This document shows, in pieces, positions 20,129-44,544 of a stretch of DNA of 64,000 nt. The notes under the pieces are model-generated. The model was not told the origin of the DNA and ran no database searches. It worked only from the letters and a program-made list of their open reading frames with translations. Made by a program: the position numbers and the translations under genes. The DNA lies in IMG/VR virus record IMGVR_UViG_3300033463_000001, positions 211,298-275,297 of that record, one strand, 5' to 3'. Source of the stretch: a virus. Its lineage: Duplodnaviria; Heunggongvirae; Uroviricota; Caudoviricetes. The first letter of the stretch is position 1; every line of letters begins with the position of its first letter.

Positions 20129-20169
20129 TTAAAAGCGCTAGGACATTCCTGTCCAGCGCATAAACAGCA

Positions 20170-20583: not shown

Positions 20584-20587
20584 AATT

Positions 20588-20768: not shown

Positions 20769-20772
20769 AAAT

Positions 20773-23008: not shown

Positions 23009-23754
23009 AGTCCATAGAGTTTATGTTCATGCATGTACCTGAGCGACTCCTTGTAGTTTGGCAACCACTGTTGTAAATTTTTCTTATTTACATCAAACTG
23101 TATGCTTGCGTTAGGAATGCTTCCGATACATCTCCTCAGTTCTGTTGACGATATCTCCTGGATGTTGATATTCTCAGCGTAGATGCAGTTGTCATTCAGC
23201 AAGCGCCTATCAACCTCGTATCCTTTGCGTGGGATGATGATTATCTTAACAATGCCGGAGTTCAATAACCAGTTGTAGTCCTTGAACTTTTCTATACTAT
23301 TAAAGCTATCAACACCCATCACAAAGTAATACTGGTTCTCATTGAAGACGTTCTCACAGACGATGCGCTTCAATGTATCAACAGTATATGCACATTGCGC
23401 GGTGCCGAAGTGAACAATCTCGTAAGGACTTATAACAATTTTATCCTTGAACCAGTCACGAATGAACTGAGGGTACTCCGGATTTAATGTCATTTGTTTT
23501 AGTGCAATGTCACACAACTTGCACCGGTGGTATGCATCAACAGTTTCTGAGTTACCTGTCTTGAACGGACTACACGGAGAAGGGAGGACATAAACCTTTT
23601 GCACAAGGACAGGATTCTCACGTTGCCCATCCCCAAGCAATGCCATTACCGTCTGTACGTGCCCAGCATGGATAGGATTGAATGAACCACCGTATATGGC
23701 GATTTTCGTACACCTATCCACACCTGGATGCATTAAGCCGTCAACTTCCAACAT
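23005..23754 (-). CDS. nadD: nicotinate/nicotinamide-mononucleotide adenylyltransferase
   Basis: GGSFNPIHAGH (HxGH nucleotidyltransferase motif), ...SPYEI..., FVMGVDSF and ISSTELR blocks match the NadD pattern. Confidence 0.8.
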   Translation of the reverse strand: MLEVDGLMHPGVDRCTKIAIYGGSFNPIHAGHVQTVMALLGDGQRENPVLVQKVYVLPSPCSPFKTGNSETVDAYHRCKLCDIALKQMTLNPEYPQFIRDWFKDKIVISPYEIVHFGTAQCAYTVDTLKRIVCENVFNENQYYFVMGVDSFNSIEKFKDYNWLLNSGIVKIIIIPRKGYEVDRRLLNDNCIYAENINIQEISSTELRRCIGSIPNASIQFDVNKKNLQQWLPNYKESLRYMHEHKLYGL

Positions 23755-23756
23755 AG

Positions 23757-24287
23757 TTAGTCAATATGTAGTTGGCGTGCCATGAACGGAACATGTTTGT
23801 AGAACATCTCCGGAATCAACTCTTCGTGGCCGAAAGCCCAGTCGTATGAATCTCTATCACCGAACGGAACCCATTTAATGCCTGCAATCTCGTCCACCTC
23901 AGAGTTCGTGTCGTTGAAGGTGAAATCACTTGTTACCTTATCGTTGATAACGGTTACATAACGCAGTGTGACATTCTGGTCTTTCTTCTTACTGAAGGAT
24001 ATCGAGTCAAATACCATCTGTTCTGGCTTCAACCCAACGCCTGTCTCCTCGAAGATTTCGCGAACAACTGCCTCGTTGCCATTCTCATCGAAGTCCAGGA
24101 ATCCGCACGGTGCGTTCCACTTGAAGTTCTCATCGGGACAACCGGCACCACGCTGATTAGCAAGCACGCACCATGTACCATCTTTGTCACGACAGAAAAC
24201 GAATCCTACAACTGCTACTGAACGACTACGCCAGTATGTCTGCCCGTCCACTTCGAACGGGAAATTTTTCATTATTCTCTCACCCAT
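23757..24287 (-). CDS. Nudix hydrolase (candidate ADP-ribose/NAD(H) pyrophosphatase)
   Basis: Perfect Nudix box GFLDFDENGNEAVVREIFEETGV (Gx5Ex7REUxEExGU). Confidence 0.8.
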   Translation of the reverse strand: MGERIMKNFPFEVDGQTYWRSRSVAVVGFVFCRDKDGTWCVLANQRGAGCPDENFKWNAPCGFLDFDENGNEAVVREIFEETGVGLKPEQMVFDSISFSKKKDQNVTLRYVTVINDKVTSDFTFNDTNSEVDEIAGIKWVPFGDRDSYDWAFGHEELIPEMFYKHVPFMARQLHID

Positions 24288-24288
24288 A

Positions 24289-25446
24289 CTATTGCTTAAT
24301 ATCTAATTCTTTCATCGCAACCTCCAACTCCTCAGGAAGACCCATCATCTTTCCCTTATCGTCGGAAATCTTCACACAATAGTTCCACTTCCAACCTCTG
24401 AACTGGCAGCGATTTAACTTCATAACGATGTTCATAGGCTTGTAACCGGTATCGTTTGTTAAATTTGTTCCGATGCCGGCGCTACACATGATTTTTCCAC
24501 TGCAGTACTCAGCAATCTCCTTGTACTTTGGGAAATCCAGCGCATTCGAGAAAACAATCGTCTTCGTTGTCGGGTCAATGCCATAGCTCTTGTAGAAGGC
24601 AACAACCTTATCAACGAATTCATACTCGTCACCGCTATCCTGGCGCACACCGTCGAACAGCTTTGCCTGCTTCAGCGTGAAGTTATTCAGGAAAGCATCC
24701 AATCCCCACGTATCGGTCAGTGCGATGCCAAGGTCACCGTCATAGGTGCGTACCCAGTTCTCGTATGCCTCGAAGTTGGCGTTGCGATAGCCGTACAGTG
24801 CACCGTGCATCATTATCCATTCGTGAGCAACAGTACCGATTGGCTTCATATCATATTTCCATGCCAGATGTACATTTGATGTACCAACACAATAGGCTGC
24901 GTAGTCTTTCAAGTACTCAACCACCATATCCTGTACCTCGTAACTGAAGCGACGGCGTGTTCCAAACTCAGAGAAGAGGAGGTTGTTGGTATTGGAGAGC
25001 ATAACCTTTGCCTCCAGGCGGCTCATCACTTCTTGCTTGTCAAGCTTGTTGTGATGGTTGCATGCCTCAGAAACGATTGCGAGGATGGGAACTTCGTACA
25101 GCGTGGCCTTGTACATGAGGTCTGTAACGGAGATATGAAGATGGCGCTGCTCGTCAACCCACAGGTCGATTTTATCTGACTCGAAACGGAATCCGGATAG
25201 CCACTCCCAGTAGAAAGCAGGGATGTACGGCATTTTCTCGATTGCCCATTCCTTCATATCCGGGGACATGGAAACCTTTTCCAGGTCGAACATCGCCATT
25301 TTAATGCGTGCAACCGTAGCGGCGTCGTACTCAGTATTATTGCGGTCGTTAAACACAAACTCACCCACCACATTAGGGAAGAGTTTCATATAAGCGTAGC
25401 CCATGCTAAACTTATACAAGTCATTATCAAGAAGGCTTTGAATCAT
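24289..25446 (-). CDS. pncB: nicotinate phosphoribosyltransferase family enzyme (PncB-like; NadV/Namat-like not excluded)
   Basis: N-terminal LLDNDLYKFSMGYAY (compare PncB LLDTDAYKLHM) and FGTRRR motif. Start moved to the MIQSLL Met (ORF track 25554 gives an N-extension). Confidence 0.75.
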   Translation of the reverse strand: MIQSLLDNDLYKFSMGYAYMKLFPNVVGEFVFNDRNNTEYDAATVARIKMAMFDLEKVSMSPDMKEWAIEKMPYIPAFYWEWLSGFRFESDKIDLWVDEQRHLHISVTDLMYKATLYEVPILAIVSEACNHHNKLDKQEVMSRLEAKVMLSNTNNLLFSEFGTRRRFSYEVQDMVVEYLKDYAAYCVGTSNVHLAWKYDMKPIGTVAHEWIMMHGALYGYRNANFEAYENWVRTYDGDLGIALTDTWGLDAFLNNFTLKQAKLFDGVRQDSGDEYEFVDKVVAFYKSYGIDPTTKTIVFSNALDFPKYKEIAEYCSGKIMCSAGIGTNLTNDTGYKPMNIVMKLNRCQFRGWKWNYCVKISDDKGKMMGLPEELEVAMKELDIKQ

Positions 25447-25711
25447 GTAAATAAAGTTGTTTAAAGTTTTCGTTATATTCTGCAATCTCCTTTTCGAGAC
25501 GTGCAATGCGTTCATCGCTGTATCCGGATATATCGTATACCTGACGGTCACCAATCACTTCGTCAACTGGCATGTAGAGCACTTTAACGGTATCATCAAA
25601 CTCAGAAGATATATGCTTGATGACATGTTCTACAAACTCAGGAACGTCGCCACGGTTAACGCCACCGATGTAAATCTGGATAACGATAATGCGTTTTTCT
25701 TTATCAGTCAT
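25427..25711 (-). CDS. hypothetical protein (94 aa)
   Basis: Compact ORF coupled to neighbours inside the operon; acidic C-terminus; no motif recognised. Confidence 0.45.
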   Translation of the reverse strand: MTDKEKRIIVIQIYIGGVNRGDVPEFVEHVIKHISSEFDDTVKVLYMPVDEVIGDRQVYDISGYSDERIARLEKEIAEYNENFKQLYLHDSKPS

Positions 25712-26540
25712 CGTTACAAATGATTAATGAATCAACAAAGGCACGGCCAGCACCGGTAAGGATAGGCATTTCAGTATCTACATACCATTGCGTGCGGACA
25801 GTCTCCTCACCGTGCTGGTTAGTAAACGATACACCCCTCTTGATGCATGCAGAACCACGCTTCTGCGGAATTGGTAGGTCATTCCAGTTAATACCTTTCT
25901 CCGTGAAGAGCTTATCTTGCAGCTTATTGCAGTTCAAGCCGAACATCTCCTTGTGTGAGAAATGTGCCTGTGCCAATGCCTGAATAGAGTTGCGTGTTGC
26001 ATCTTGCTGGCGCCAGAGGATATTATTGGTTACATCCTCTTTCGGAACATTGAACGCGCGACAGTCGAAGATGGCACCATCCAGTGTTACACGGTCATAT
26101 GCGTTATATACCTTGCGGAAATTATCCGTAGTAACGGTCAGGTCAACCACTTCTTTGGAACAGATGGCCATATTTGCTACGAAGTACGAGTTAAAGGCCT
26201 TGGTTGCCATGGATGCAGCAACGGAGCACATTTTCTGTACTTCATTATCGAACCATGCAGATGAGTTGAGTTTCTTGTAGTCTACAAGGATAAGCGTTAT
26301 CTCATCCGACTGTGTATAGCCGAATACACAACCTTGTATATGCTCACAGAGATACTTCATGGTATCCTGCATGGTTTTCATCATGACCGGGTCAAACGGT
26401 TTGATAAAGCCACGGGTTGTCGTGTGGAAGTGACACCCGTCGAGACGCAGAATAACCGGCATACGAGGAACAAGAGACGTCTTGCTGACCGCCTCGTACT
26501 TCTTCATTCTATCGCCGAGTGAATCGTTTTTGTTTGCCAT
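25704..26540 (-). CDS. tRNA-His guanylyltransferase (Thg1)-like 3'-5' nucleotidyltransferase
   Basis: VILRLDGCHFH...KPFD...GYTQSDEITLIL and ...LWRQQD... align with Thg1 family signatures (RLDGRNFH, AYGQSDE, SWRQAD). Confidence 0.75.
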   Translation of the reverse strand: MANKNDSLGDRMKKYEAVSKTSLVPRMPVILRLDGCHFHTTTRGFIKPFDPVMMKTMQDTMKYLCEHIQGCVFGYTQSDEITLILVDYKKLNSSAWFDNEVQKMCSVAASMATKAFNSYFVANMAICSKEVVDLTVTTDNFRKVYNAYDRVTLDGAIFDCRAFNVPKEDVTNNILWRQQDATRNSIQALAQAHFSHKEMFGLNCNKLQDKLFTEKGINWNDLPIPQKRGSACIKRGVSFTNQHGEETVRTQWYVDTEMPILTGAGRAFVDSLIICNDD

Positions 26541-26566
26541 AGTTGTAATAGTTTTTCAAATTCGCC

Positions 26567-26617
26567 CACAAAGATATGTAAAATTTTTGATATATACAAA
26601 TCCTGTGGACGAATTTT
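26567..26617 (-). promoter_or_regulatory. Bacteroidota-type promoter (TTTG-N20-TATCTTTG) within a 50 nt conserved repeat, copy 1 of 3
   Basis: Minus-strand read: AAAATTCGTCCACAGGATTTG-tatatatcaaaaattttaca-TATCTTTG, 22 nt before the Thg1 start. Near-identical copies at 44485-44535 and 51899-51949. Confidence 0.6.
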
Positions 26618-26619
26618 CA

Positions 26620-27198
26620 TTACTCTGCAGCAGCTGCGGCGCGTTTTGCCTTCTTTTCGGCAATCTTCGCCAGCTGTGCTGCCTTACGTTCTGCGCGCTC
26701 TTTCTCTTTTGCTTCGCGACGAGTTTTGAGGTAGGCTTGTTTCTTCTCGCGCTTTTCTGCACGAGCCTTCTCGTCGGCTTCCTCCTGTTTTTTCTTCTGC
26801 TCCTCTGCTTTCTCAATTCGCTCTTTGCGCTTTGCAGCGAAGTCCTTGAAGTTCTGAATTTGCTCGTCAACAATCTCACGCAGGAAGACCTTGCCTTCAT
26901 CCGTTCCGTTGAGGAATGTAATGAATCCGCGTACTGCAGAACTGAGCGTGCTGGTCTTGTTCTCACATGCAGCAACCTCTTGTTCGAGAGAGCTCTTGGA
27001 ATTCATAATTCGTTCAACAAGAAGAGAAACTTCTTTGCGGAAACTGTAGGTAAGCGTCATCTTGGTATAGTAATGACTATACTCTTCCGGCGTCATTCCG
27101 TTGTGTTCTTTCTTGAAACGCTCCAGCGCCTCTTGGGATAACTGTTGAACATCGTCCAACGTCTCCATGGTGTTACCGTTTACACTTTTAATTGCCAT
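26620..27198 (-). CDS. hypothetical protein with Lys/Glu/Ala-rich coiled-coil tail
   Basis: 192 aa; C-terminal 70 aa low-complexity KEKRAE repeats. Confidence 0.5.
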   Translation of the reverse strand: MAIKSVNGNTMETLDDVQQLSQEALERFKKEHNGMTPEEYSHYYTKMTLTYSFRKEVSLLVERIMNSKSSLEQEVAACENKTSTLSSAVRGFITFLNGTDEGKVFLREIVDEQIQNFKDFAAKRKERIEKAEEQKKKQEEADEKARAEKREKKQAYLKTRREAKEKERAERKAAQLAKIAEKKAKRAAAAAE

Positions 27199-27211
27199 GT
27201 GTTCTCATTTG

Positions 27212-27400
27212 TTAATCGTCAATTACCTGCCAATCCTCGCGGTTAACGAACTTGTCAAACCACGGGCTGTTATCAATGGTACCTTCTTTTGTGCGTACGT
27301 AGAACAGATTATCATCGCCTACGAACCACCAGCCTTCCCACTCTGGGAGCTTAATCTTTTTGCCACTATATGCTGCGGCCAGCGCTAATCTAAAGTTCAT
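27212..27400 (-). CDS. small hypothetical protein (62 aa)
   Basis: Compact ORF between the coiled-coil gene and prs on the same strand. Confidence 0.4.
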   Translation of the reverse strand: MNFRLALAAAYSGKKIKLPEWEGWWFVGDDNLFYVRTKEGTIDNSPWFDKFVNREDWQVIDD

Positions 27401-27412
27401 ATCCTTTATTGT

Positions 27413-28309
27413 TTATACATTTGCGATTACATGTACCTTCGGATTCTTACCTGTGTAGATGCTATCCGTTGTGTAGATACCGGACAGTTCACCAACCAAC
27501 AGAGCGTCGAGAAGTTTTGTGTTCTCTGGGTGTGCATCTTTGTCTATGTAGCTGTTCTCAAGGTGTGTGCAGTATGCGAAGATATTCTTGAAACCACACT
27601 CACGCAGTTCCGATGCGCTCAGCACAACTGTTTCTCCCGTAGAGATAATATCATCGATGATGAGAGCTACCTTGTTTGCGAAGTACTCCGGCGTTGTGAT
27701 ACCTTCTGTGCCACGATGCTGGTGTAACCCGAACTCAACAATCTCCCTGGTATCGAAGTTTCGCAGTTTCTTACCGTAGAATACCGTAGATGCCAACTCA
27801 GTATCATTTGCGATATCCTTGTAGCGCTCCATGGCACCCATATCCGGGAAACAGAGTACGACGTCTCGATTGATGTAGGTCTTAATACCTTCAATTACCT
27901 TGCGGATGTATGTGTCAGGCGACATGACCTGAACGTTGTTAATCAACTCGCATGCCTTTGCAGAGTGAGGGTCAAGGAAATAAACCTTGGTGAAATGTAG
28001 TGAGTTAATGACATCAGCGAAATGCTTCAGTGTAAATACCTGCTTCTCATCCTCAACACGGTCGAGTCGTGCGTTCGGCATGTACGGCACTGTAAGCGTG
28101 ATTTGCGGGCAGCGCTTATCCATGTTTTTAAACGTGTCACGGATGTGTTTAACGAGATAGATGATTGTGATTAGTTCACCTTCGTTTTCGTACGTCCAGT
28201 GAATATCCTGAACACCATGGTAGCGCACTGCAACGTTGAACATCTTCAGTGTTCCGTCGGCAAAGTGTTCGTTGCCGACAACTAATTCTCCATTATAAAG
28301 TGTTATCAT
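27413..28309 (-). CDS. prs: ribose-phosphate pyrophosphokinase family enzyme (PRPP synthetase or ADPR-PP synthetase-like)
   Basis: VPYMPNARLDR (compare IPYFGYARQDR), FLDPHS (DLH), VALIIDDIISTGETV (PRPP-binding loop), NIFAYCTHL. Divergent from housekeeping Prs. Confidence 0.75.
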   Translation of the reverse strand: MITLYNGELVVGNEHFADGTLKMFNVAVRYHGVQDIHWTYENEGELITIIYLVKHIRDTFKNMDKRCPQITLTVPYMPNARLDRVEDEKQVFTLKHFADVINSLHFTKVYFLDPHSAKACELINNVQVMSPDTYIRKVIEGIKTYINRDVVLCFPDMGAMERYKDIANDTELASTVFYGKKLRNFDTREIVEFGLHQHRGTEGITTPEYFANKVALIIDDIISTGETVVLSASELRECGFKNIFAYCTHLENSYIDKDAHPENTKLLDALLVGELSGIYTTDSIYTGKNPKVHVIANV

Positions 28310-29061
28310 ACTGTTTGTGTTGTGTACATTGTGTTAGGTTGTAACGAATTTGGTTCGCTTACAGGCTCTTTGTATTTCTCTGCCTTTTTGAAGTCTTCGT
28401 TGAACTCGATGTAAGCTGCTTTCCATTTGTCGAACTCTTCTTGAGTGATAGGGTAGATAGCGTACTTGTCAGCCATGTACATGAATCCTGCCTCGCCGGC
28501 CATGCACTTATCGTCACCTTCTTTCAACGGGTGTCCGATGAAGATGTGGCCAAGGTGTGCTTCGTGGAAGCTTGCAATACAATTAATTTCCTCATCCGGA
28601 CGGAACGAACGTGTGAATACAAATCTGTTTACAGTTCCGGCGTATTGTTTATTGAGTCCGAATGCAACCAAGTAAGCCTCGTTTTCTTCTTTGTATGCGT
28701 GGCCACCAATCTTGACGAGCTTCTTCGCATCTTCGTTTCCGATGATATATTCAACGAAATATTCAGCCTCTACCGTAGAAACAGTAGCCGTTGGAATGTC
28801 GATACCGTTCACCTCAGTGATTGTTTCAATCTTGAGTTTATAGATATCGTTTTCTACATCGTGCTCCACTTCAAGAACCTTATCGAACAAGCGCATGCAC
28901 GCGCCGTTTTGGAACTTGTTGGTGTGGAATACCGTACCAGGCACAACTGCCTCACAGAATTTCTGAACGAGCTTACCCTGCTTGTAGAGTGCAATTAACT
29001 CACGTGCCATGAATATCAACATGATAACAATGGCTACAATAAAGACAATCTTTACAGTCAT
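28306..29061 (-). CDS. hypothetical membrane-anchored protein
   Basis: 251 aa; N-terminal hydrophobic helix (IVFIVAIVIMLIFMA); start overlaps the pncA stop. Confidence 0.5.
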   Translation of the reverse strand: MTVKIVFIVAIVIMLIFMARELIALYKQGKLVQKFCEAVVPGTVFHTNKFQNGACMRLFDKVLEVEHDVENDIYKLKIETITEVNGIDIPTATVSTVEAEYFVEYIIGNEDAKKLVKIGGHAYKEENEAYLVAFGLNKQYAGTVNRFVFTRSFRPDEEINCIASFHEAHLGHIFIGHPLKEGDDKCMAGEAGFMYMADKYAIYPITQEEFDKWKAAYIEFNEDFKKAEKYKEPVSEPNSLQPNTMYTTQTV

Positions 29062-29657
29062 ACAGCATCTGATTTAATGACTTTAATCTGGCAACTTTTC
29101 ATCACGTCCAGCGCCTCTGCGTGTTTCTCCGGTGTTGTTCCAGCACTCAGGTCTTCAATGACACGAATAACAGCGTCAGGATAGGTTGCGCGCAGGATAA
29201 GTGCATTGCTTACAACACAAATATCGGTACATACACCCATTATATCAATCACGTATCCTTCTCCGGCGAAATCATCATTGTTTTTCCTGATAGGGATAAT
29301 GTCGAGCAGGTCATACATCCAGTGTATGTTGCCGAAGGTGTTTTTCTCAATACGACGGCATGACAGTTCGCTGAACTTATCTGCTACCTCGTTAATCTGA
29401 TGATTTAACGCATGACCCCACGAACCCTTGATGCAGTGCTCAACCGGCAGGTTTATACCTTCCAACGTCTCAAGATAGTTTTTCTCGTGCGTATCGAGAG
29501 TGAAAACGGTCATCTCGTAGTCCTTGTGTGTGCGTTCCAGGAAATCAGCCATCTTCTCTACAATGGCAACCGTATCCTTATTTGCGAGTGTTCCGGTCTG
29601 TGAACAGAAGTCGTTTTGCATGTCAACGACAACCAGTAAATGTTTTGATTTAGACAT
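29058..29657 (-). CDS. pncA: nicotinamidase (isochorismatase family)
   Basis: LLVVVDMQNDFC, DTH, PVEHCIKGSWGHAL, IEK, MGVCTDICV match the PncA catalytic Asp/Lys/Cys and metal-binding positions. Confidence 0.8.
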   Translation of the reverse strand: MSKSKHLLVVVDMQNDFCSQTGTLANKDTVAIVEKMADFLERTHKDYEMTVFTLDTHEKNYLETLEGINLPVEHCIKGSWGHALNHQINEVADKFSELSCRRIEKNTFGNIHWMYDLLDIIPIRKNNDDFAGEGYVIDIMGVCTDICVVSNALILRATYPDAVIRVIEDLSAGTTPEKHAEALDVMKSCQIKVIKSDAV

Positions 29658-29669
29658 ATGCGTGCTGTG

Positions 29670-30542
29670 TTATCCGATGTTATACGAAGGAGCCAGTTCT
29701 GGTACCAATGAATCATTTACAGAGAAAAGGTAACGACCGTCACATAAAGTCGGCGTATCCTCTGTTTCAAATACAGTGTTATCCATGTCATACAAGAGTC
29801 CGGGAGCCGGTTGGAACATTGGAACAGGCATCAGCTTGAACAGGTTCTTGTTGTGACGATTGGTGATATTTTCAAGGTCTGTCTGCGATGCGCATTCGCC
29901 TGTACGGATATACTTATCAAGTGTTGCGTAGGTAAAACCGAACTTCTCTTCATCCGTAGCGCCAACGAGTCCATCAGCTGGAGCTTTCTCGATAAAGCGC
30001 TTATCAAGGCCGAGTTCATAGCCGATTTCCTTCACCTCACTTGCTGTTAGGAGTGCGAACGGCATTACGTCACCAACGGAGTCTCCCCAACGGGTCATCC
30101 ATCCAACCCAATCCTCAGAGTAGTTACTGGTGTTCACAACGCGGCCATTGCAAGACTGAGCCACTGCATATAGTACAGACATACGCAATCTCGGAGGCAA
30201 GTTCCACTTTGTCTGGTCAGTGATAGAGATGCCTGCGTCATCAATTCCTGCGAGGATGGCGTCGTATGCGCAACGTATATTAACCGTTACGTTCTGTATT
30301 CCAAGCGTTTTACACAGGTCTTGCGATACGTTAATGTCAGATTGTACACCATTCGGAATGAGAACACCGAGAACATTCTCCTTACCGATAGCAGCACAGC
30401 ACAACGCGGCCATGATACTTGAATCCTTGCCACCAGAGATACCGATGACGAGTTTACAACCTTTTGCGTTGGCCTCGTACCATGTAATCAGGAACCTCTT
30501 GAGTGATTCACATGTTTCTTTTCGATTGAAATTATAATTCAT
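29670..30542 (-). CDS. nadE: NH3-dependent NAD+ synthetase
   Basis: PP-loop VIGISGGKDSS plus LIPNGVQ, TVNI and C-terminal KAP.DGL...DE..FGFTY blocks align with NadE. Confidence 0.85.
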   Translation of the reverse strand: MNYNFNRKETCESLKRFLITWYEANAKGCKLVIGISGGKDSSIMAALCCAAIGKENVLGVLIPNGVQSDINVSQDLCKTLGIQNVTVNIRCAYDAILAGIDDAGISITDQTKWNLPPRLRMSVLYAVAQSCNGRVVNTSNYSEDWVGWMTRWGDSVGDVMPFALLTASEVKEIGYELGLDKRFIEKAPADGLVGATDEEKFGFTYATLDKYIRTGECASQTDLENITNRHNKNLFKLMPVPMFQPAPGLLYDMDNTVFETEDTPTLCDGRYLFSVNDSLVPELAPSYNIG

Positions 30543-30585
30543 ACAACGTGTATTTTCTTAAACTCAATACTAATATAGTCCTTTT

Positions 30586-31167
30586 TTAGGAATCTTGACT
30601 CTTTTCTACGTACAATTTGCAACAACAACGGTTCTTTGTACGATATCCCTCACATGGACAATGTAAATCTCCGTCATTCTCCGGGTGTTTGCACGGACAG
30701 TTGCCATCACAGCGTTGGATTCCCTTATAGATACCCTTTCGAACTGCTATATTGTCAGTCAGCTTAAATCCGTCCAACTCAGTGACAGGAACTAGGTACG
30801 TCGGTGCCTGTAGTTCAACGCGCTCTCCGTTTGGCTTATAGATGATGAACGCGAATGAGTAGCCATCCGTCTCGAAACCACGTATATCTCCGTACTCACC
30901 ATCCGGAAGTAGGTAGTCGCGACGTGTGTCTGCTTCATTTATGACGGTGTCAATCCACTCTTGCGCTCCTGCCGGAAGGTACTTGTTGTCGTTGATGAAT
31001 AAACCTTGTGCGTATGCCAGTTCCATCTGGTAGAAGAGCCTGCGCTCAGTGATATACTCTCCGCGAAGATACGGTTGCTCAATACGCAGGATAACCTTGT
31101 TGCCTTTACCGTATTTGCGCATCAGTTTCTTGAATATGCGTGCGTCTTTAGTAATATATGTTTTCAT
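30586..31167 (-). CDS. hypothetical protein with Cys-rich C-terminus
   Basis: 193 aa; C-terminal CDGNCPCKHPENDGDLHCPCEGYRTKNRCCC cluster suggests metal binding. Confidence 0.5.
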   Translation of the reverse strand: MKTYITKDARIFKKLMRKYGKGNKVILRIEQPYLRGEYITERRLFYQMELAYAQGLFINDNKYLPAGAQEWIDTVINEADTRRDYLLPDGEYGDIRGFETDGYSFAFIIYKPNGERVELQAPTYLVPVTELDGFKLTDNIAVRKGIYKGIQRCDGNCPCKHPENDGDLHCPCEGYRTKNRCCCKLYVEKSQDS

Positions 31168-31174
31168 GCGTGTG

Positions 31175-31226
31175 TTAAAAAATAGGAGGAATGTAGCCAG
31201 GACATTCCGTCAGCATACATTCCTCC
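31175..31226 (-). terminator. Rho-independent terminator downstream of the flotillin-like gene
   Basis: Perfect 10 bp inverted repeat GGAGGAATGT...ACATTCCTCC. On the minus strand it is followed by TATTTTTTAA. Confidence 0.6.
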
Positions 31227-31243
31227 ACCAATGATAGTAGTGA

Positions 31244-32752
31244 TTACTTACCCTGTTGTCCCAGGTCAACACTTGCCGTTGCAACAGTAGAGTTGTCTTG
31301 CATGATTCGACTCAGGTCAACGCCGGTAGCTTCTTTAACGACGTCCATGGTCTGTTTCATCAGCACTGGGACGTTCCCAGAAAGTCCGGAAACCTCATTA
31401 CCGGTTGTTCCATAGACACGTACATCACCAATCTGACTCAGCGGGCTTGCAACCTTCTCGGCAACCTCAGGAAGAACGTGTACCATCATCTCTGCAAGTG
31501 CTGCAGGACCGTATTTCTTGAATGCCTCAGCCTTCTTGTCCATTGCGGCTGCTTCTGCCTCACCTTTAGCCTTGATGGCTGCGGCTTCTGCCTTACCGAC
31601 AGCCTCGATACCGGCTGCTTTCTGTTGTTGAGCGAAGAGGTCTGCCTCTGCCTTTGCCTTGATGGCGCGTGCTTGTTGCTCTGCCTCGTATGCTTCGGCC
31701 TCGGCTTTACGCTTGCGTTGCTCCAGTTCAGCTGCTGCGGCTTGCTCTTTCTGATACTTCTCAGCATCGGCTTGCTTGTTAACCTTTGCAGCGAGGGTCT
31801 TCTCCTGGATGGCAATCTCTTGCTCTTTGAGCTGTTGCTGTTGTTTTGCCTTCTCAACCTCTGCCTCAACGGCCTTGCGGTTAATAAGGAGTTGCTGCTC
31901 CTGAATACGAATCTCCTTTGCGGTAGAAGCCTCAACCGTCTTGACGTTAATGTCCTTTGCTTGCTCTTGTTTCTGAATCTCATAAGCTGCGTCAGCGATA
32001 GCCTTTTGTTTATCGGCCTTGCTTTTCAACTCAGACTGTTTGATGGACAGTTCAGTGTTCTTCTCGGCAATCTGCGTCTCTGCCTCAACGCGTGCATCGT
32101 TAGCCTCTTTCTGTGCAAGTGCTTTTGCAATAGCAACGTCGCGCTCTGCGTTAGCCTTGTTGATGGATGCATCTTTTGTAATCCTGCATGTGTTGTCAGC
32201 ACCGAGGGCGTAGATGAGACCGTCGTTGTCCTTAATGGTTTGAATGTTGCAAGAGATAATCTTGATACCCAGTTCTGTCATGTCCGGAGCTGCCTTTGCC
32301 TGAATCTGGTTAGAGAATCCGTCACGGTCAGTGTTCAACGAGCGTAGGTCTTGCGTACCGATAATCTCACGCATGTTACCTTGCAAGGAGTCACGAATTT
32401 CCTCTGCGATTTCCTCACGCGACTTATTAAGGAAGTTTGCAGCGGCAATGTCAATACAGTCACGGTCAATACTTACTTTGGCAACTGCGTCGACGTCAAC
32501 ATTGATAAAGTCGGATGTCGGAACGGGTGTACCTGTTTTGATGTCAACAGACAATTGTCCGAGATAGAGGGTATCAACACGATGCAATCCAGGGATACGG
32601 AATCCACCGGTACCAGTTAAATACCTCGGCTTTTTCAACGGCCAACCAGATACAACCAACGCTTTGTTTGGTCCAACTTTCACATAGCAGACTGCGAAGA
32701 ATAGCATCGCCAGTCCAAGCACTACAAGTGCAATAATTAATCCAGTACTCAT
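31244..32752 (-). CDS. flotillin-like SPFH/band-7 membrane protein
   Basis: 502 aa. N-terminal TM helix, SPFH-like core, then a >150 aa Ala/Glu/Lys/Gln coiled coil (EAEVEKAKQQQQLKEQE...), the classic flotillin (FloT/YqiK) architecture. Confidence 0.7.
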   Translation of the reverse strand: MSTGLIIALVVLGLAMLFFAVCYVKVGPNKALVVSGWPLKKPRYLTGTGGFRIPGLHRVDTLYLGQLSVDIKTGTPVPTSDFINVDVDAVAKVSIDRDCIDIAAANFLNKSREEIAEEIRDSLQGNMREIIGTQDLRSLNTDRDGFSNQIQAKAAPDMTELGIKIISCNIQTIKDNDGLIYALGADNTCRITKDASINKANAERDVAIAKALAQKEANDARVEAETQIAEKNTELSIKQSELKSKADKQKAIADAAYEIQKQEQAKDINVKTVEASTAKEIRIQEQQLLINRKAVEAEVEKAKQQQQLKEQEIAIQEKTLAAKVNKQADAEKYQKEQAAAAELEQRKRKAEAEAYEAEQQARAIKAKAEADLFAQQQKAAGIEAVGKAEAAAIKAKGEAEAAAMDKKAEAFKKYGPAALAEMMVHVLPEVAEKVASPLSQIGDVRVYGTTGNEVSGLSGNVPVLMKQTMDVVKEATGVDLSRIMQDNSTVATASVDLGQQGK

Positions 32753-32837
32753 AATTTAATTTAGTGTGTTTTGTGAATTTCGTATCTAATATAGTCCGGA
32801 TAATCCGATTCTTGTAACGAATACTTGATTATTTTAG

Positions 32838-35115: not shown

Positions 35116-35550
35116 ATGAGGTATAGAATAAACACATATGATGTCAACAAGACGGAAGATAGCGTTCGGTTGTTGATTAAAGCTCCGGAAGATGCCACCA
35201 TTGAGGGCATCCGACTGGTTATTGACGAATCGAAAACCTTACCTCTTGTTAGCTCGATGCAGAAGGGTAATGCAACGCTGGAGTCTGGTGTCACTGGCGG
35301 AGATTTTACACATGCCATTATTATACAAAGTGGTGTTGTTGACGAGGTTGGATTAAAGCTTGGCATAGCCAGCGCCTTTACTTTTGTAGAGGAGAGTGAT
35401 GAGTTTACCATTGAGGTAGACTGGGGAGATAAACTAGAAGATGTCATTGATTTAATAGGAGACCTAAACGAAATCTTGGAGGCTATTAATGGAGACACAG
35501 TTGACGGAATAGTTGCGGATTATCTAGAAGAACATCCAATAACTCCGTAA
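35116..35550 (+). CDS. hypothetical protein (144 aa)
   Basis: ORF 1 nt after the upstream stop; acidic. Confidence 0.45.
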   Translation: MRYRINTYDVNKTEDSVRLLIKAPEDATIEGIRLVIDESKTLPLVSSMQKGNATLESGVTGGDFTHAIIIQSGVVDEVGLKLGIASAFTFVEESDEFTIEVDWGDKLEDVIDLIGDLNEILEAINGDTVDGIVADYLEEHPITP

Positions 35551-35561
35551 TAAACAAAAAA

Positions 35562-35592
35562 CCGATGCCATTCACGGACATCGGTTTTCTTT
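35562..35592. terminator. bidirectional Rho-independent terminator
   Basis: AAAAAA-CCGATGcc-attcacgga-CATCGG-TTTTCTTTTT between convergent genes. Confidence 0.65.
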
Positions 35593-36090
35593 TTAGTTGA
35601 CATTAATAAACATTTTATGTGGCGCGCGAGATTTACCACCGAAGTAGAAGCCAAGCGTTGTTAGGAAACATGCGCTAGACCTCATATCAGAGAACAAAGA
35701 TACCTCATTTCCGTCAATCAGAAATCTAAATGTATAGTCTCCAAGAACTTCACTTATGCGATTTACTTCGATTCTATACGTATGCTGTTCACCAACATTT
35801 AAAGAAGCAATTTTGTTCTTTGTGAGTACTCCATTTTTGTATATGTAGCTCCAAATATAGATACTATTCATATACTCATTGTACGTCCATCCGAATCGTA
35901 TCGAGTTCTTATGCACACCGAAACCAAAACAGAATCCAAATAGTTTATTCACACAGCTCGGCTCGTCAATACTATATTTGCATGACTCATCGAATGCAAT
36001 AGTGCGCTCCATATAGAAGTATGAACTTGGTCTTTTGAACCACGGAATGAAGGTTGAATAGTGACAACCTTTAAATATTGTTTGCCTCAT
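35593..36090 (-). CDS. hypothetical protein (165 aa)
   Basis: ORF at the start of a minus-strand block; aromatic-rich; no motif. Confidence 0.45.
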   Translation of the reverse strand: MRQTIFKGCHYSTFIPWFKRPSSYFYMERTIAFDESCKYSIDEPSCVNKLFGFCFGFGVHKNSIRFGWTYNEYMNSIYIWSYIYKNGVLTKNKIASLNVGEQHTYRIEVNRISEVLGDYTFRFLIDGNEVSLFSDMRSSACFLTTLGFYFGGKSRAPHKMFINVN

Positions 36091-36091
36091 A

Positions 36092-37210
36092 TTATATCTC
36101 GTTTAATACAACAACCACACTCATAATGATGCACGTTATAATGGAAGATAGGACGACAAAAAACCATCCTGTTGATGTGACTGGTGTCTCGATGTAGTCG
36201 AAGTCTGCAAACTCCTTGCGTTTCCATTGTTTCGGAACGTTCTCAAGCAGATATCGCTCCAATACCATTAAATCCAGCGTCTCACCTTCTTCGTAGATGT
36301 GATTACACCCAACACTCATGTACGGTGTATCCTCCCAACTAAAAGAGTTGACCCATTGCACGTTATCAGTTTCGTCGATTGATATACATACAATCAACTC
36401 ATTCTTGTTGCCACCGATAAGGAAGTTCTTTTGTTCCTCCACAATACTCATTGGTTTATTCCTGTATACAAAGACAAAACACCTGAACTGATATGGCGCA
36501 CCGTAATAGGCATTAACATATTTGAATGAGTCAATTACGCTTTCACCAGGATTATAGCCAACGATTGGGTTCTGGTCGCGCACAACCGGCGGGTAATCGT
36601 ATAATCCGAGTGAATCAGCTTTATCCTCTCCAACCTCTGAGAAATTGAAGATAGACATACTGTTCTTAACCTTGTTCTTATACCTGTGCGTCAGTGTGAC
36701 TGTGTACATATGGTTCCTGTCACCGTTGAATGAGCACGTGTATTTGTCGCCATCCTTGGTGTAGTAATGCCGGTGCATATCAACGAAGACCTTTGGTGTT
36801 CCGAACCTGCACACAATCTCATCATATTCGCGCTGTGATATTTCCAATGTCCTGCCGTTGCTAAGTATCATCTCCCAGTACTCACGGTGCTCCTTTACAT
36901 ATGAACAGTCATAGGTCTCGGTGTGATACTTTGCATTTCCATCTTCATCTCTTCCGTCATACACCTCCCTTGTGCAGGTCTTATGGATATACTCATTCCA
37001 AGGCTCGTAGTAGGCAACCTGTGTTGTGTAGTAGCCAAGATACTCAGTATCTGATGATACGTACGATTTGATTGAGATATACACAATCACCGGAACTAAT
37101 ATACCTGGTATCAATACCAATAGATATTCAAGCGGGCGTACCCATTCCCGAAAGAAAACGAGAAGGAGCGCACACGCAAGAATAGGTATGAGGAAGACAA
37201 GTGCTATCAT
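36092..37210 (-). CDS. hypothetical membrane protein (N- and C-terminal TM helices)
   Basis: 372 aa; hydrophobic helices at both ends. Confidence 0.5.
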   Translation of the reverse strand: MIALVFLIPILACALLLVFFREWVRPLEYLLVLIPGILVPVIVYISIKSYVSSDTEYLGYYTTQVAYYEPWNEYIHKTCTREVYDGRDEDGNAKYHTETYDCSYVKEHREYWEMILSNGRTLEISQREYDEIVCRFGTPKVFVDMHRHYYTKDGDKYTCSFNGDRNHMYTVTLTHRYKNKVKNSMSIFNFSEVGEDKADSLGLYDYPPVVRDQNPIVGYNPGESVIDSFKYVNAYYGAPYQFRCFVFVYRNKPMSIVEEQKNFLIGGNKNELIVCISIDETDNVQWVNSFSWEDTPYMSVGCNHIYEEGETLDLMVLERYLLENVPKQWKRKEFADFDYIETPVTSTGWFFVVLSSIITCIIMSVVVVLNEI

Positions 37211-37215
37211 AGCTT

Positions 37216-37833
37216 TTAGTGATTAAACAGTTCAACCGAGTCGTCGATTCCTGTTGTGATGGTGGATTTTGTTTTTGTTGATGAGATGACTGTGTATTCA
37301 ATCGGTTCCTTGTTCTGAATGAACCACTTCGCCGGCATAGATTCACAGAGTGTTGTGTGTTGCCTAATGATGTCCAGCATGCGATACTGTGCATTAGCAA
37401 ATGAGAGACGCTGTGCCTCAATGCTCTGCATCAAGTGTTTGTAAAGCGACGTGTCGAAGTTTGGGTTTTGCTCTTGAATCCACTTCATGAGAGAACCATC
37501 TCCTTGAGAGTAGCGACCTTCGATAATAGCCGGATAGATTTCTTTGAAGGCGTTCTTGTACTCGTCAGCAACCTGTGCTTCCTGGTTGATGATTTTCCAC
37601 ATTGCGTCGAAGTTGGTTTCGATTTTACCACGTTGTGCCTCTGCTTGATTGCGCAGTGATACTTCTGTGTTGTTGTACGAGAAGTACATGATGCCGGCCG
37701 TTGCGCCAAAGAGAACTCCTAGGCCGAGAATGATTGCCGCGATGATTGCGACGATAAATGATGAATTGTTTTCCATTGTTGTTATTGTTGTTTTAGTTAG
37801 TGACCGTAGTCGTATGATATTTCTTTTCCACAT
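37216..37833 (-). CDS. LemA-family-like membrane protein
   Basis: N-terminal TM helix followed by ...SLRNQAEAQRGKIETNFDAMWKIINQEAQVADEYKNAFKEI..., reminiscent of the LemA topology and conserved core. Confidence 0.45.
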   Translation of the reverse strand: MWKRNIIRLRSLTKTTITTMENNSSFIVAIIAAIILGLGVLFGATAGIMYFSYNNTEVSLRNQAEAQRGKIETNFDAMWKIINQEAQVADEYKNAFKEIYPAIIEGRYSQGDGSLMKWIQEQNPNFDTSLYKHLMQSIEAQRLSFANAQYRMLDIIRQHTTLCESMPAKWFIQNKEPIEYTVISSTKTKSTITTGIDDSVELFNH

Positions 37834-38015
37834 TCAACCGTAATGATTACGTTTCTTGCGATGCCACGGATGCCTTGTTTTGTTGAGTAGTGTTTTCCGT
37901 CAAGGTAGCGTGTGAAGACGTAACCTGAGTGCTCGCCATAATATGCTCCGTCAGGCAGTTCTGTGATTTTTGATGTTATTTCAGGATTCATATTCCGTAT
38001 TTGATTAGTTCCCAT
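37797..38015 (-). CDS. small hypothetical protein (72 aa)
   Basis: ORF coupled to neighbours on the same strand. Confidence 0.35.
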   Translation of the reverse strand: MGTNQIRNMNPEITSKITELPDGAYYGEHSGYVFTRYLDGKHYSTKQGIRGIARNVIITVECGKEISYDYGH

Positions 38016-38275
38016 ATGTTATAACGGAAGAATTGAACAAGTCCTTTGAGAGACCGCCATATTACTTTCAGCAATGATATCAACAAACAGATAGTCATTG
38101 CTACCACATATGCGGCAATAGTTACAGGCCAGAAGAGCACTTTTGCCATTGATATTTCATCATTCCTGTCATCCGCAAACCACCCAAATAGTCCGCCGAG
38201 ACACCAGAATGCAAATCCAGCGATGCCATATATGATAAGTGCTGCGACAACGCATCCAATTGTTTCAAGCGTCAT
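37988..38275 (-). CDS. small membrane protein (95 aa, two TM helices)
   Basis: Two hydrophobic helices (IGCVVAALIIYGIAGFAFWCLGGLFGWF and FWPVTIAAYVVAMTICLLISLL). Confidence 0.45.
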   Translation of the reverse strand: MTLETIGCVVAALIIYGIAGFAFWCLGGLFGWFADDRNDEISMAKVLFWPVTIAAYVVAMTICLLISLLKVIWRSLKGLVQFFRYNIWELIKYGI

Positions 38276-38792
38276 TGTCTTCAGTGATTTTAGAGAAGTC
38301 CAACTCAGATATAATGTGTAACAGTCGTTCCAGCTCGAAGTTTCGGTAAGCCGTCATTGCGTAGGTGCGAGGATTGGAGTGGTTGTAACCAAATCGCTCG
38401 ATGTATTCTTTGCAAGCGCGTTTTGTGAGGAAAGCACCGGTGTTCATGCTAATGAAATCCTCTTGGCGAGTTGAGATGAGCCGTGCCTCGTCTACGCCAC
38501 ACATGTCGTTATAGAAATCGATAACACTCTCAATATCTGATTTATCAACATCACACCAAGCAATCCCCTCTTCTTGACCGTCAACGTACTCGTCCACGTG
38601 TTCTACAAACTCGTCACATGTGTATGTTCTATCGTCGCAGACGACCATTTCGTCATCTCCGCAGCCTTCCGGAACGCCGACTGTTTTTGTTTCAAGAACT
38701 CCCCAGTATACAGGTGATGCGTTACCGTCATTCGTCTGAGTGTTGAGTTCGTGCTGTAAATCCTTCAGGAATTCAATATCTTCTTTTTTCAT
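38265..38792 (-). CDS. hypothetical acidic protein (175 aa)
   Basis: ORF, Cys/Asp-rich. Confidence 0.45.
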   Translation of the reverse strand: MKKEDIEFLKDLQHELNTQTNDGNASPVYWGVLETKTVGVPEGCGDDEMVVCDDRTYTCDEFVEHVDEYVDGQEEGIAWCDVDKSDIESVIDFYNDMCGVDEARLISTRQEDFISMNTGAFLTKRACKEYIERFGYNHSNPRTYAMTAYRNFELERLLHIISELDFSKITEDNDA

Positions 38793-38802
38793 AATGTTAG
38801 TT

Positions 38803-39294
38803 TTATTGGATTGGCATCCAGTGAGTGATTAAACCTTGCAATATCTTCGCAGGACACCAAGTCTTTGTCGCATGGTCATACCTGGCTGATGTTCCGTCAC
38901 CTTTGTATGTCTTTACGAAAACTGTTTTTGATAATAATGTTTTATGACTATCATCTATTTCCGGAAGACGGTCATCTACACTAATCCATCTGTCGCGCAG
39001 TATAGCATTTTCAACTGACGCCATATCTACAGCTGTTGAGTAGGCAGCTATTCGCTTATCGCGCAGTGCCACGGAATCTTCCAAACGTCTGTTTGCAACG
39101 GATAGTTTTTCACACATATCTTGGAGCCTTTTGATTTCTGCATCACGACTGTGTGCTCCTGCAATAAAGGCCTTTTCACTAACAGCATGACACATGTTAC
39201 TGCCAGAATGGTCAGTATAATCGTGTTTATCATACTCACCATAATTATCTATTGCGTACTCTAATGCATTTTGTTTAATTTGTTCTTCTGCCAT
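38803..39294 (-). CDS. DUF551-like protein fused to shared N-terminal 'MTDEQIRQNA...AGAHSRD' module
   Basis: C-terminal RWISVDDRLPE...THWMPIQ. N-terminus MAEEQIKQNALEY...FIAGAHSRDAEI matches standalone ORFs 40663 and 41600. Confidence 0.55.
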   Translation of the reverse strand: MAEEQIKQNALEYAIDNYGEYDKHDYTDHSGSNMCHAVSEKAFIAGAHSRDAEIKRLQDMCEKLSVANRRLEDSVALRDKRIAAYSTAVDMASVENAILRDRWISVDDRLPEIDDSHKTLLSKTVFVKTYKGDGTSARYDHATKTWCPAKILQGLITHWMPIQ

Positions 39295-39578
39295 AGTTCT
39301 TTTAGGTAATTAACGTATCGTTGCTGCTCATCAAGCACCTTCTCCTCGCGTTCAATGACTTTCTCAATTGATATTAACGCAACATTGTTTGCAGCGCACT
39401 CATAATGCAGCTCCTTGGGTAGTCGGCAACCGTTATATCCAGCAAAAGCACAGTGTCGGCAGTGCGAGTAATCTGGATTCTGCTCCTCACACAGATATTT
39501 CTTATCATTAATAATAACGACGTCGCCGTGGTTGAGGTATTTTTCCCCTGTTAATTCGTCCGTATCCATATTGTTCAA
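39261..39578 (-). CDS. hypothetical protein (105 aa) with CxxC pairs
   Basis: ORF containing ...CEEQNPDYSHCRHCAFAGYNGC... Confidence 0.4.
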   Translation of the reverse strand: MNNMDTDELTGEKYLNHGDVVIINDKKYLCEEQNPDYSHCRHCAFAGYNGCRLPKELHYECAANNVALISIEKVIEREEKVLDEQQRYVNYLKELWQKNKLNKMH

Positions 39579-39931
39579 TGCTTCTTTTGGTTAGGCCGTT
39601 TTCCGTTATGTGTCTCGCGGTAGTCCATGTCAATGTAGTCAAGGAGCCTTATAAGGAATGGGATTTCGTTTTCTACATCTGTTAACTCGTTCGCTTCAAA
39701 TCCAATGACTGTCCTGTAGTCTTGCGCTTTGAGATAAAGCTTGAGTCCGAATTCGTTACCACTGATTATGTCAAAACAAGCGTTAAACGTTCCGAACGGC
39801 TGGAGGTAGTGTATTATCGTTTCACCAGTCAGTTCAAACTTACCATTCTCGAAATACTCTGCGATATTACGCATAAGGCGCTGCTTAATTGGTAGCAGTT
39901 GGTTTTGGTATTTTTTACTTGGTAAACTCAT
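39575..39931 (-). CDS. hypothetical protein (118 aa)
   Basis: ORF; start overlaps the upstream stop. Confidence 0.45.
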   Translation of the reverse strand: MSLPSKKYQNQLLPIKQRLMRNIAEYFENGKFELTGETIIHYLQPFGTFNACFDIISGNEFGLKLYLKAQDYRTVIGFEANELTDVENEIPFLIRLLDYIDMDYRETHNGKRPNQKKH

Positions 39932-39941
39932 AGTGTTTTAT

Positions 39942-40232
39942 TTAAAAATTCACCCAAATTACTTTATATATCATGCGATACCTATTGCGCCTTGTTAAGA
40001 CGGTGTACCGCCAATGTTTCTTAGACGAATCAAAATACTCATCGCGAATATATCTTGAATCGCCATCAGAGATGACGCTTGTTTCGCCGTTGTTTTTGCG
40101 TATCATTTCTCCGGGGAGTGGAACGCGCTCTGCGTAGGAATACCAACGTTGTTTTCCGTTAAGGAACTTAGCAATCTCTTTACTGTTCATCACGTACTTC
40201 TCCACTGTGACAGGAATAACTTCGTATGCCAT
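39942..40232 (-). CDS. hypothetical protein (96 aa)
   Basis: ORF, basic. Confidence 0.4.
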   Translation of the reverse strand: MAYEVIPVTVEKYVMNSKEIAKFLNGKQRWYSYAERVPLPGEMIRKNNGETSVISDGDSRYIRDEYFDSSKKHWRYTVLTRRNRYRMIYKVIWVNF

Positions 40233-40250
40233 AATTAACTGTTTTTATTT

Positions 40251-40658: not shown

Positions 40659-40662
40659 GTTA

Positions 40663-41598: not shown

Positions 41599-41599
41599 T

Positions 41600-41809: not shown

Positions 41810-41811
41810 AG

Positions 41812-42393: not shown

Positions 42394-42395
42394 AC

Positions 42396-42806: not shown

Positions 42807-42809
42807 AAT

Positions 42810-43535: not shown

Positions 43536-43554
43536 TTTTTTTTCTCGTAGTGTT

Positions 43555-44535: not shown

Positions 44536-44544
44536 ACAAACTTA

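Follow-up and report, generated by a model that had tools for sequence, protein, structure and literature searches.

The stretch of DNA analyzed here (hereafter the window) is 64,000 nucleotides of a Caudoviricetes virus, positions 211,298 to 275,297 of IMG/VR record IMGVR_UViG_3300033463_000001. Near its middle, on the minus strand, lies an open reading frame (ORF) that encodes a genuine full-length flotillin, with an anchored SPFH domain, a long coiled coil, and a flotillin C-terminal domain. A first-pass annotation made from the sequence, without database searches, had proposed a phage-borne flotillin-like SPFH protein with its own terminator at this position. The gene begins with ATG and specifies 502 amino acids (aa). 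JGI's own call of the identical protein has the same ends and the same 502 aa and carries the name 'flotillin'. The features of the gene, drawn from the ORF list, Pfam, residue composition, and an AlphaFold2 (AF2) model, are as follows:

31244 to 32752, minus strand: flotillin coding sequence, stop codon included (502 aa, ATG start; ORF list)
32684 to 32743, minus strand: predicted N-terminal hydrophobic membrane anchor, aa ~4-23 (Kyte-Doolittle hydropathy and AF2 helix)
32144 to 32680, minus strand: SPFH/Band_7 domain, aa 25-203 (Pfam PF01145, AF2)
31478 to 32143, minus strand: A/E/K/Q-rich helical (coiled-coil) region, aa 204-425 (composition, AF2, alignment to flotillin-1)
31343 to 31594, minus strand: flotillin C-terminal domain (Pfam Flot, PF15975), aa 387-470 (above the gathering score)

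Profile searches recovered both of the domains expected of a flotillin. The SPFH core that had been proposed from the translation matches the Pfam family Band_7/SPFH (PF01145) over aa 25-203 with an E of 1.7e-19 (71 bits against a cutoff of 23.6), and the flotillin C-terminus, for which a domain search had been suggested, matches Flot (PF15975) over aa 387-470 with an E of 6.8e-9 (36.3 bits against a cutoff of 27). The NCBIfam FloT model NF058507 also aligns with the protein (E 2.8e-77, 260.8 bits) but does not reach its equivalog cutoff of 700; judged by its sequence, the phage flotillin is not an equivalog of FloT (YuaG). The proposed N-terminal transmembrane segment corresponds to a single hydrophobic stretch at aa ~4-23 (19-residue Kyte-Doolittle mean of 2.9), with no second such segment in the protein, and attachment to the membrane at the N-terminus is therefore a prediction from hydropathy and model alike. 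We also looked for a lipobox in this anchor and found none; Cys 22 is Ser in homologues. The long EA/KQ-rich coiled coil is likewise plain in the composition of the protein, as A, K, E, and Q make up 66% of aa 204-420 (for the coiled-coil region, A 25%, K 15%, E 14%, and Q 12%). This A/E/K/Q-rich helix spans about 240 residues and aligns with the helical wall region of flotillin-1.

The predicted structure agrees with this assignment. In the AF2 model (mean predicted local distance difference test score of 71.8), an N-terminal helix (aa 3-22) is followed by an alpha/beta domain (aa 30-175), two very long helices (aa 179-268 and 278-425), and a small C-terminal part. A sequence search of the PDB aligned human flotillin-1 over aa 25-486 of the phage protein with an E of 6e-46, and flotillin-2 similarly (~1e-45); the next SPFH relative by sequence, QmcA, had an E of merely 4e-8. 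The top Foldseek matches were the flotillin complexes 9l3g and 9bq2 (E 8e-23), which come ahead of stomatin, HflK/C, and prohibitin by ten orders of magnitude (these and erlin at ~1e-12). By sequence and by modeled fold, the phage protein is nearer to flotillins than to stomatin, prohibitin, HflK/C, or erlin. A generic coiled-coil protein devoid of an SPFH core, the one outcome that would have overturned the first-pass annotation, is in practice ruled out by the Band_7 and Flot matches, the alignment to flotillin-1/2, and the fold match.

Comparison with characterized SPFH proteins shows both what the phage flotillin has in common with them and where it departs. The eukaryotic flotillin-1/flotillin-2 complex (9bq2, 9l3g) has ~30% identity to it in the Foldseek alignment and the same order of SPFH domain, helical wall, and C-terminal domain. 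Eukaryotic flotillins, however, use acylation and hydrophobic hairpins at the membrane and form a 22+22 hetero-oligomer, whereas the phage flotillin carries a hydrophobic helix at its N-terminus and is without a paralogue in the window. The HflK/HflC-FtsH and QmcA-YbbJ (SPFH-NfeD) membrane cages have the SPFH fold and helical wall in common with it (Foldseek E ~1e-11 to 1e-12), but HflK/HflC and QmcA belong to different subfamilies (14-19% identity) without the Flot C-terminal domain, and they act with the partners FtsH and NfeD, neither of which was found in the window. The flotillins FloT (YuaG) of B. subtilis and YqiK of E. coli belong to the same family as the phage protein. Both are encoded in operons with an NfeD-type partner, yuaF or yqiJ; unlike them, the phage flotillin has no such partner gene in the window.

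The closest relatives of the window flotillin are found in other phages. Three related phage lineages have orthologues at 78-79% identity, whose phage-like contigs measure 365 kb, 183 kb, and 86 kb: the closest protein (P0002, 79% identical) lies on the 365-kb contig, the IMG/VR locus L013 (79%) on the 183-kb contig, and P0004 is 78% identical. All three sit among short ORFan genes. The next group, at 71-77% identity over the full length, consists of flotillins of rumen Paludibacteraceae/Bacteroidales metagenome-assembled genomes (MAGs), and Prevotella flotillins are about 55% identical. The rumen proteins (L064-L074, L083; P0019) resemble the phage copy in their length of ~500 aa, their domain order, and the lack of a conserved adjacent NfeD gene. 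They are encoded on bacterial chromosomes among housekeeping neighbors (Pth, Hsp15, and NrdD at the P0019 locus; RecA, PFK, and PheS across the wider bacterial homologue loci) and have a higher GC content at third codon positions (GC3), whereas the phage copy stands in a phage gene block, with a promoter-like box and a terminator of its own, and has a slightly more diverged SPFH domain. Median gene length is 178 aa at viral-labeled loci versus 338 aa at genome-labeled loci, a split that supports these labels in general.

We placed these sequences in a neighbor-joining tree with 200 bootstraps, in which the phage clade comprises four sequences. The phage clade received 86% bootstrap support, and the joint group of phage and Paludibacteraceae/Bacteroidales sequences received 100%. 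The bacterial set alone was monophyletic in merely 4.5% of replicates, and thus the phage clade branches within or beside the bacterial group. On this sequence evidence, the phage flotillin is an orthologue of the flotillins of its presumed host lineage, Paludibacteraceae/Bacteroidales.

The phage copies are constrained as strongly as the bacterial ones. Among phage copies the ratio of nonsynonymous to synonymous divergence (dN/dS) is 0.04-0.07, with a dS of 1.8-3.1 that is near saturation, and a pair of bacterial orthologues gave a dN/dS of 0.05, the same as the phage copies. GC3 ranges from 0.27 to 0.50 in the phage copies, tracking each phage genome, and from 0.49 to 0.76 in the bacterial copies. 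All of the family-invariant positions (100+) are kept in the phage flotillin. By region, the coiled-coil segment is best conserved (79-83% identity to bacterial orthologues, 87-90% within the phage clade), and the anchor and C-terminal end are the most variable. We considered a phage-specific divergence of the anchor and C-terminus and rejected it, as bacterial orthologues show the same pattern. The sole regional peculiarity of the window lineage is a mildly faster SPFH domain, which is 79-83% identical to phage and bacterial orthologues. These patterns of substitution indicate that the phage flotillin is an old, functional phage gene under strong purifying selection, not a stray passenger.

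The element that carries the gene is well supported as a jumbo phage, an identity not proven from the window alone. Of its 77 predicted proteins, 57 (74%, ORFans) are without a Pfam family. The Pfam matches include a homologue of T4 gp30.3 (Phage_30_3, E 2e-59), three DUF551 proteins, a Peptidase_S74 tail-fibre chaperone, bAvd, and two RVT_1 reverse transcriptases, and one window protein matches two dozen tail-fibre PHROGs. Three pairs of variable and template repeats, of the kind that defines diversity-generating retroelements (DGRs), lie at gene 3' ends on the plus strand (10640-22501). Their mismatches are adenine-specific, falling at template adenines in 6 of 7, 11 of 14, and 16 of 17 cases for the three pairs:

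3' ends of the genes 10640 to 11944, 15234 to 16841, and 18557 to 20128, plus strand: DGR variable repeats
12513 to 12638, 17060 to 17194, and 20650 to 20768, plus strand: DGR template repeats
12642 to 13877 and 20707 to 21996, plus strand: DGR reverse transcriptases, with a bAvd-like protein in the region

The assembly itself provides further evidence. The flotillin gene lies at 306,239-307,747 of JGI contig Ga0265301_10000011 (327,292 bp), and a gene from the start of the window falls at its opposite end. From the coordinates, window position 11,840 equals contig position 1 and window position 11,699 equals contig position 327,292, so that the ends of the contig overlap by 142 nt; a 327,291-bp ENA assembly and the JGI contig differ in origin. 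Because the window bridges the ends of the JGI contig and the two assemblies have different origins, we conclude that this is a circular genome assembly of about 327.15 kb. The same gene neighborhood with an identical flotillin was found in several independent samples and assemblies. The tail-fibre gene, S74 chaperone, gp30.3 homologue, DGRs, ORFans, circular assembly, and IMG/VR relatives together bear out the suggestion that the flotillin is phage-borne. The phage probably infects rumen or gut Bacteroidales, with Paludibacteraceae-like bacteria the most likely hosts. Giant ORFs adjoin its tail-fibre and DGR-target genes: two in the window encode 1444 and 1664 aa (5544-9878 and 53247-58241, both on the plus strand), and three just outside it encode 2524, 953, and 1673 aa (L144 1-9996). 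The two in the window have no Pfam or PHROG match, and the three outside have no Pfam family on record; presumably these are virion or adhesin proteins.

Carriage of a flotillin recurs in large phages, within a protein family that is itself well known. Peptide patterns taken from the window flotillin alone recovered at least 51 IMG/VR loci with a flotillin at 42-79% identity, 31 of them on contigs of 100 kb or more and 8 on contigs of 200 kb or more. These loci fall in several clades interleaved with bacterial ones. Seven of 50,697 GenBank phage records match the window flotillin. Five are uncultured gut phage contigs, and cultured phages contribute two partial, distant matches; one of these two, the 'flotillin family protein' of Vibrio phage KIT04, matches only aa 19-216 of the window protein, at 26% identity. 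PHROGs v4 gave no significant match for the flotillin, the sole weak one being to a 'lipoprotein' family (E 0.025). Our literature search for phage flotillins returned annotation-level mentions alone, plus an unrelated prophage that integrates into host floA, and SPFH goes unmentioned in a comparative review of jumbo phages. Other phage-encoded SPFH proteins are a 263-aa SPFH/Band 7 protein of the Vi01-like phage PhiSH19, whose role is unassigned (PMC3220722), and an SPFH lipoprotein of Schitoviridae GIB1 (PMC13239085), the latter in a paper that says the reason for the presence of a phage SPFH gene 'remains unclear' (PMC13239085). Relative to the window flotillin, the SPFH proteins of KIT04, PhiSH19, and GIB1 are short or distant.

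The sequences on either side of the gene suggest how it is transcribed. The relevant features are:

31175 to 31226, minus strand: intrinsic-terminator-like hairpin, 10-bp perfect stem plus U-tract (sequence, RNA fold)
32786 to 32797, minus strand: 12-mer GGACTATATTAG, a promoter-like box whose 3' end lies 34 nt from the A of the flotillin ATG
30570 to 30581, minus strand: second 12-mer copy, 28 nt ahead of the NAD synthase ATG
51982 to 51993, minus strand: third copy of the 12-mer, in the divergent region heading the minus-strand gene block 35593-51881

The hairpin begins 17 nt past the flotillin stop codon. Its arms, GGAGGAATGT and ACATTCCTCC, lie at plus-strand coordinates 31185-31194 and 31217-31226 with 22 nt between them, and on the coding strand it is followed by the U-tract UAUUUUUU (31175-31184). 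The perfect 10-bp terminator stem described in the first-pass annotation was confirmed both in the sequence and by RNA folding (-24.4 kcal/mol, z = -3.66), and none of 200 shuffles folded as well. A consensus terminator scan picks a nested 7-bp version of the same hairpin. Terminator-like sites are not enriched in the surrounding 8 kb (5 found versus 6.3 expected from shuffles), and the case for a terminator therefore rests on fold and position, not on the consensus scan. That case is strengthened by the L004 and L010 orthologues, which have unrelated hairpins with U-tracts at the same position (the L004 stem has 13 bp; that of L010 has 19 bp and a z of -5.6).

Upstream of the gene, the 12-mer GGACTATATTAG was found where it had been reported. 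There are three exact copies in 64 kb, compared with 0.25 expected, and no matches with one mismatch; all three copies are on the minus strand, intergenic, and upstream of minus-strand genes. Degenerate copies with 2-3 mismatches occur at chance level (49 found, 53 expected), which leaves the three exact copies as the only ones with meaning. Related phage loci lack the motif. The 12-mer contains TATATTAG, one base off TAnnTTTG, the -7 promoter consensus of Bacteroidota, and similar boxes lie 27-41 nt upstream of neighboring genes, including the divergent plus-strand gene at 32866. A sigma-70 consensus scan returned sites at chance level (15 found versus 14.4 expected). From these sequence features we infer that the 12-mer is a promoter element. 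The flotillin is the first gene of the minus-strand block 22622-32752 and is predicted to be transcribed largely alone, from a host-type promoter-like box to an intrinsic terminator. A second strong hairpin (35556-35590, minus strand) has a 14-bp stem and a U-tract. It is flanked by the plus-strand gene 35116-35550 and by the end of the minus-strand gene 35593-36090, and probably terminates the long minus-strand block.

The flotillin gene stands alone both in these phages and in these bacteria. The first-pass annotation had noted that no NfeD partner is adjacent, and a Pfam scan found none among the 77 window proteins. Nor was there an NfeD among eight individually scanned upstream neighbors of flotillins in other viral clades, seven of which match dCTP-deaminase-like, DUF1599, metallophosphoesterase, NS-endonuclease, or NMNAT-like families and one of which has no Pfam match. 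NfeD is also not among the top 25 families listed for 132 viral and 148 bacterial neighbor representatives, a list that a single member could escape. It is not recurrent beside bacterial homologues, whose surroundings are variable housekeeping genes, and thus its absence is not specific to phages. Across about 80 bacterial loci we counted 182 distinct clusters within two genes of the flotillin, and clustering revealed no widely shared bacterial neighbor. A conserved downstream partner was not found either, as the window, L004, and L010 have mutually unrelated genes downstream of the flotillin. PADLOC returned no family at E <= 0.01 for the flotillin or either flanking gene.

Downstream of the flotillin in the window lies a near-complete Preiss-Handler/salvage gene set for nicotinamide adenine dinucleotide (NAD+) (22622-30542, minus strand). 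It and the other neighbors in this block are:

30586 to 31167, minus strand: 193-aa ORF between the flotillin terminator and the second 12-mer, with the Cys-rich C-terminus CDGNCPCKHPENDGDLHCPCEGYRTKNRCCCKLY
29670 to 30542, minus strand: NAD synthase
29058 to 29657, minus strand: isochorismatase/nicotinamidase-like gene
27413 to 28309, minus strand: phosphoribosyltransferase
25704 to 26540, minus strand: Thg1-like gene (tRNA-His guanylyltransferase family), found also at 9147 to 9977 of L004 and 7179 to 7979 of L010
24289 to 25554, minus strand: NAPRTase
23757 to 24287, minus strand: NUDIX
23005 to 23754, minus strand: cytidylyltransferase/NMNAT-like gene
22622 to 23008, minus strand: DUF488

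This NAD set fits the published class of 'NAD-jumbo phages', whose hosts are mostly Bacteroidota (PMC11662467). The three related phage lineages have the Thg1-like gene 22 nt upstream of the flotillin gene; in the window the order of the two is reversed, with the NAD gene set between them. The 193-aa ORF has no Pfam or PADLOC match and no counterpart beside the orthologous flotillins.

Other carriers show different surroundings. On the IMG/VR contig IMGVR_UViG_3300032167_003270 (L054; 290 kb, GC ~28%), positions 3622-18567 encode, in order, GyrB-like and GyrA-like proteins, SecY, a 226-aa protein of unknown function, a flotillin, FtsH, and a BspA-like leucine-rich repeat (LRR) protein. The SecY homologue matches with an E of 1e-76, and the FtsH homologue has AAA, M41, and FtsH_ext domains. 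The topoisomerase II genes are similar to ones that lie close to flotillins on other viral contigs, and the 1727-aa BspA-like LRR neighbor gives no pointer to viral or cellular origin. If L054 is viral, its gene order amounts to a phage-borne set for inserting membrane proteins and controlling their quality, with a flotillin at its center; PA5oct-like jumbo phages are known to carry FtsH genes. Elsewhere, in the L027, L036, and L043 groups of other viral clades, a calcineurin-like metallophosphoesterase lies directly upstream of the flotillin, and topoisomerase II subunit genes lie 5-9 kb downstream of it in L030, L036, L041, L043, L049, L060, and L061. This arrangement of metallophosphoesterase and topoisomerase II genes suggests an old synteny common to large phages.

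What might a flotillin do for such a phage? The best explanation overall, and one we hold with moderate confidence, is that the gene is an old host-type flotillin of a circular jumbo phage that maintains or retunes the inner membrane during infection. We infer the oligomerization, localization, timing, and physiological role of the protein as follows. The N-terminal helix would insert the flotillin into the membrane, and the helical wall and C-terminal domain would assemble into cap- or cage-like oligomers on the inner membrane's cytoplasmic side, as in flotillin-1/2. The phage protein would then supplement or replace the host flotillin as host gene expression declines, and membrane fluidity, membrane integrity, and the Sec and FtsH complexes would be kept working or retuned through a long jumbo-phage infection. 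Such a maintenance role parallels that of the neighboring NAD-salvage and Thg1-like genes, which also duplicate host functions, and the SecY-flotillin-FtsH order on L054 points the same way. That the protein modulates host membrane complexes, as the first-pass annotation raised, is speculation.

Several observations weigh against this explanation. As far as is known, bacteria in which flotillins have been studied can do without them, and the selective advantage that a phage would draw from one is therefore not obvious. The SPFH domain of the window protein (79-83% identity) is somewhat more diverged than that between bacterial orthologues or between other phage copies (88-92%), and a domain so diverged in sequence could reflect altered specificity, not a plain substitution for the host protein. 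The next outgroups in the tree are again viral contigs, and so the tree does not settle the direction of transfer. There is no capsid, portal, or terminase gene in the 64-kb window, which leaves the phage identity resting on the tail, DGR, and gp30.3 markers and on related IMG/VR contigs. Finally, the promoter reading of the 12-mer draws on its likeness to a consensus.

Among the other explanations, the one that fares best, although we regard it as unlikely, is that large gut and rumen phages repeatedly use flotillin as a dedicated module for membrane engineering, and not as a spare version of a host gene. It would build phage-specific microdomains or cages that organize or shield the Sec translocon, an FtsH-type protease, or entry or lysis proteins, or that neutralize membrane-targeting abortive-infection effectors. 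If this were true, the contig with SecY, the unknown protein, flotillin, and FtsH would be a fuller version of the module.

Three more specific roles rank below membrane maintenance because nothing specific supports them. One, which we judge somewhat less probable than a dedicated module, is counter-defense, in which the flotillin would guard the membrane from depolarizing or perforating abortive-infection effectors, or would cage a host membrane protease or effector as HflK/C cages FtsH. The flotillin does head a block with an NAD+ salvage set and a Thg1-like tRNA-repair enzyme, both plausibly anti-defense (PMC11662467), SPFH cages enclosing FtsH are solved structures that we recovered as structural relatives, and one IMG/VR contig (L054) has a flotillin beside an FtsH homologue. 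However, the linkage to the NAD genes is not conserved, as related phages have Thg1 alone as a neighbor, and the flotillin has no PADLOC match and is an orthologue of a host protein, without a novel domain.

We consider it improbable that the flotillin acts in superinfection exclusion, reorganizing the inner membrane so that the DNA of a later phage cannot cross, a role the first-pass annotation had also mentioned. Like many exclusion genes it encodes a membrane-anchored protein on its own transcription unit, and in PhiSH19 an SPFH-domain gene adjoins an annotated superinfection-exclusion gene (PMC3220722). The exclusion proteins known so far, though, are small and evolve quickly, whereas the flotillin has 502 aa and evolves slowly (dN/dS 0.05), and the adjacency in PhiSH19 is anecdotal and involves a different SPFH subfamily (263 aa). 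To about the same low degree we credit dominant interference, in which the ~75%-identical phage protein would co-assemble with the host flotillin and poison or retarget its microdomains, amounting to takeover and not maintenance. The oligomerizing coiled coil is indeed the part best conserved relative to bacterial orthologues while the anchor and C-terminal end diverge, and eukaryotic flotillin-1 and -2 do hetero-oligomerize (9bq2, 9l3g), but the same regional pattern is seen between bacterial orthologues and the 100+ family-invariant positions are kept. It is very hard to believe that this is no functional phage gene at all, but a bacterial gene on a misassigned or chimeric contig or a recent passenger: although the closest named homologues are bacterial MAG proteins and the window lacks a capsid or terminase gene, an identical protein with the same neighbors recurs in independent samples and assemblies, the phage orthologues group in a clade of their own, in which synonymous divergence is saturated and dN/dS is 0.05, and the surroundings are phage-like where bacterial homologues are flanked by RecA, PFK, and a tRNA synthetase.

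The first-pass description proved accurate in each point that could be checked. The window flotillin is a well-documented member of a known family in an unusual carrier, with no new domain, architecture, or mechanism demonstrated. Flotillins and other SPFH proteins are conserved membrane organizers whose physiological role in bacteria is debated. Purifying selection of bacterial strength on the phage flotillin, together with dozens of large uncultured carriers, suggests that the protein matters within a single infection cycle, and the phage setting thereby makes for a clearer experimental approach than bacterial knock-outs, whose phenotypes are mild. A membrane-homeostasis gene would join the host functions brought by jumbo phages, beside NAD+ synthesis and tRNA repair in the same region, and raises the question of why large phages keep a flotillin.

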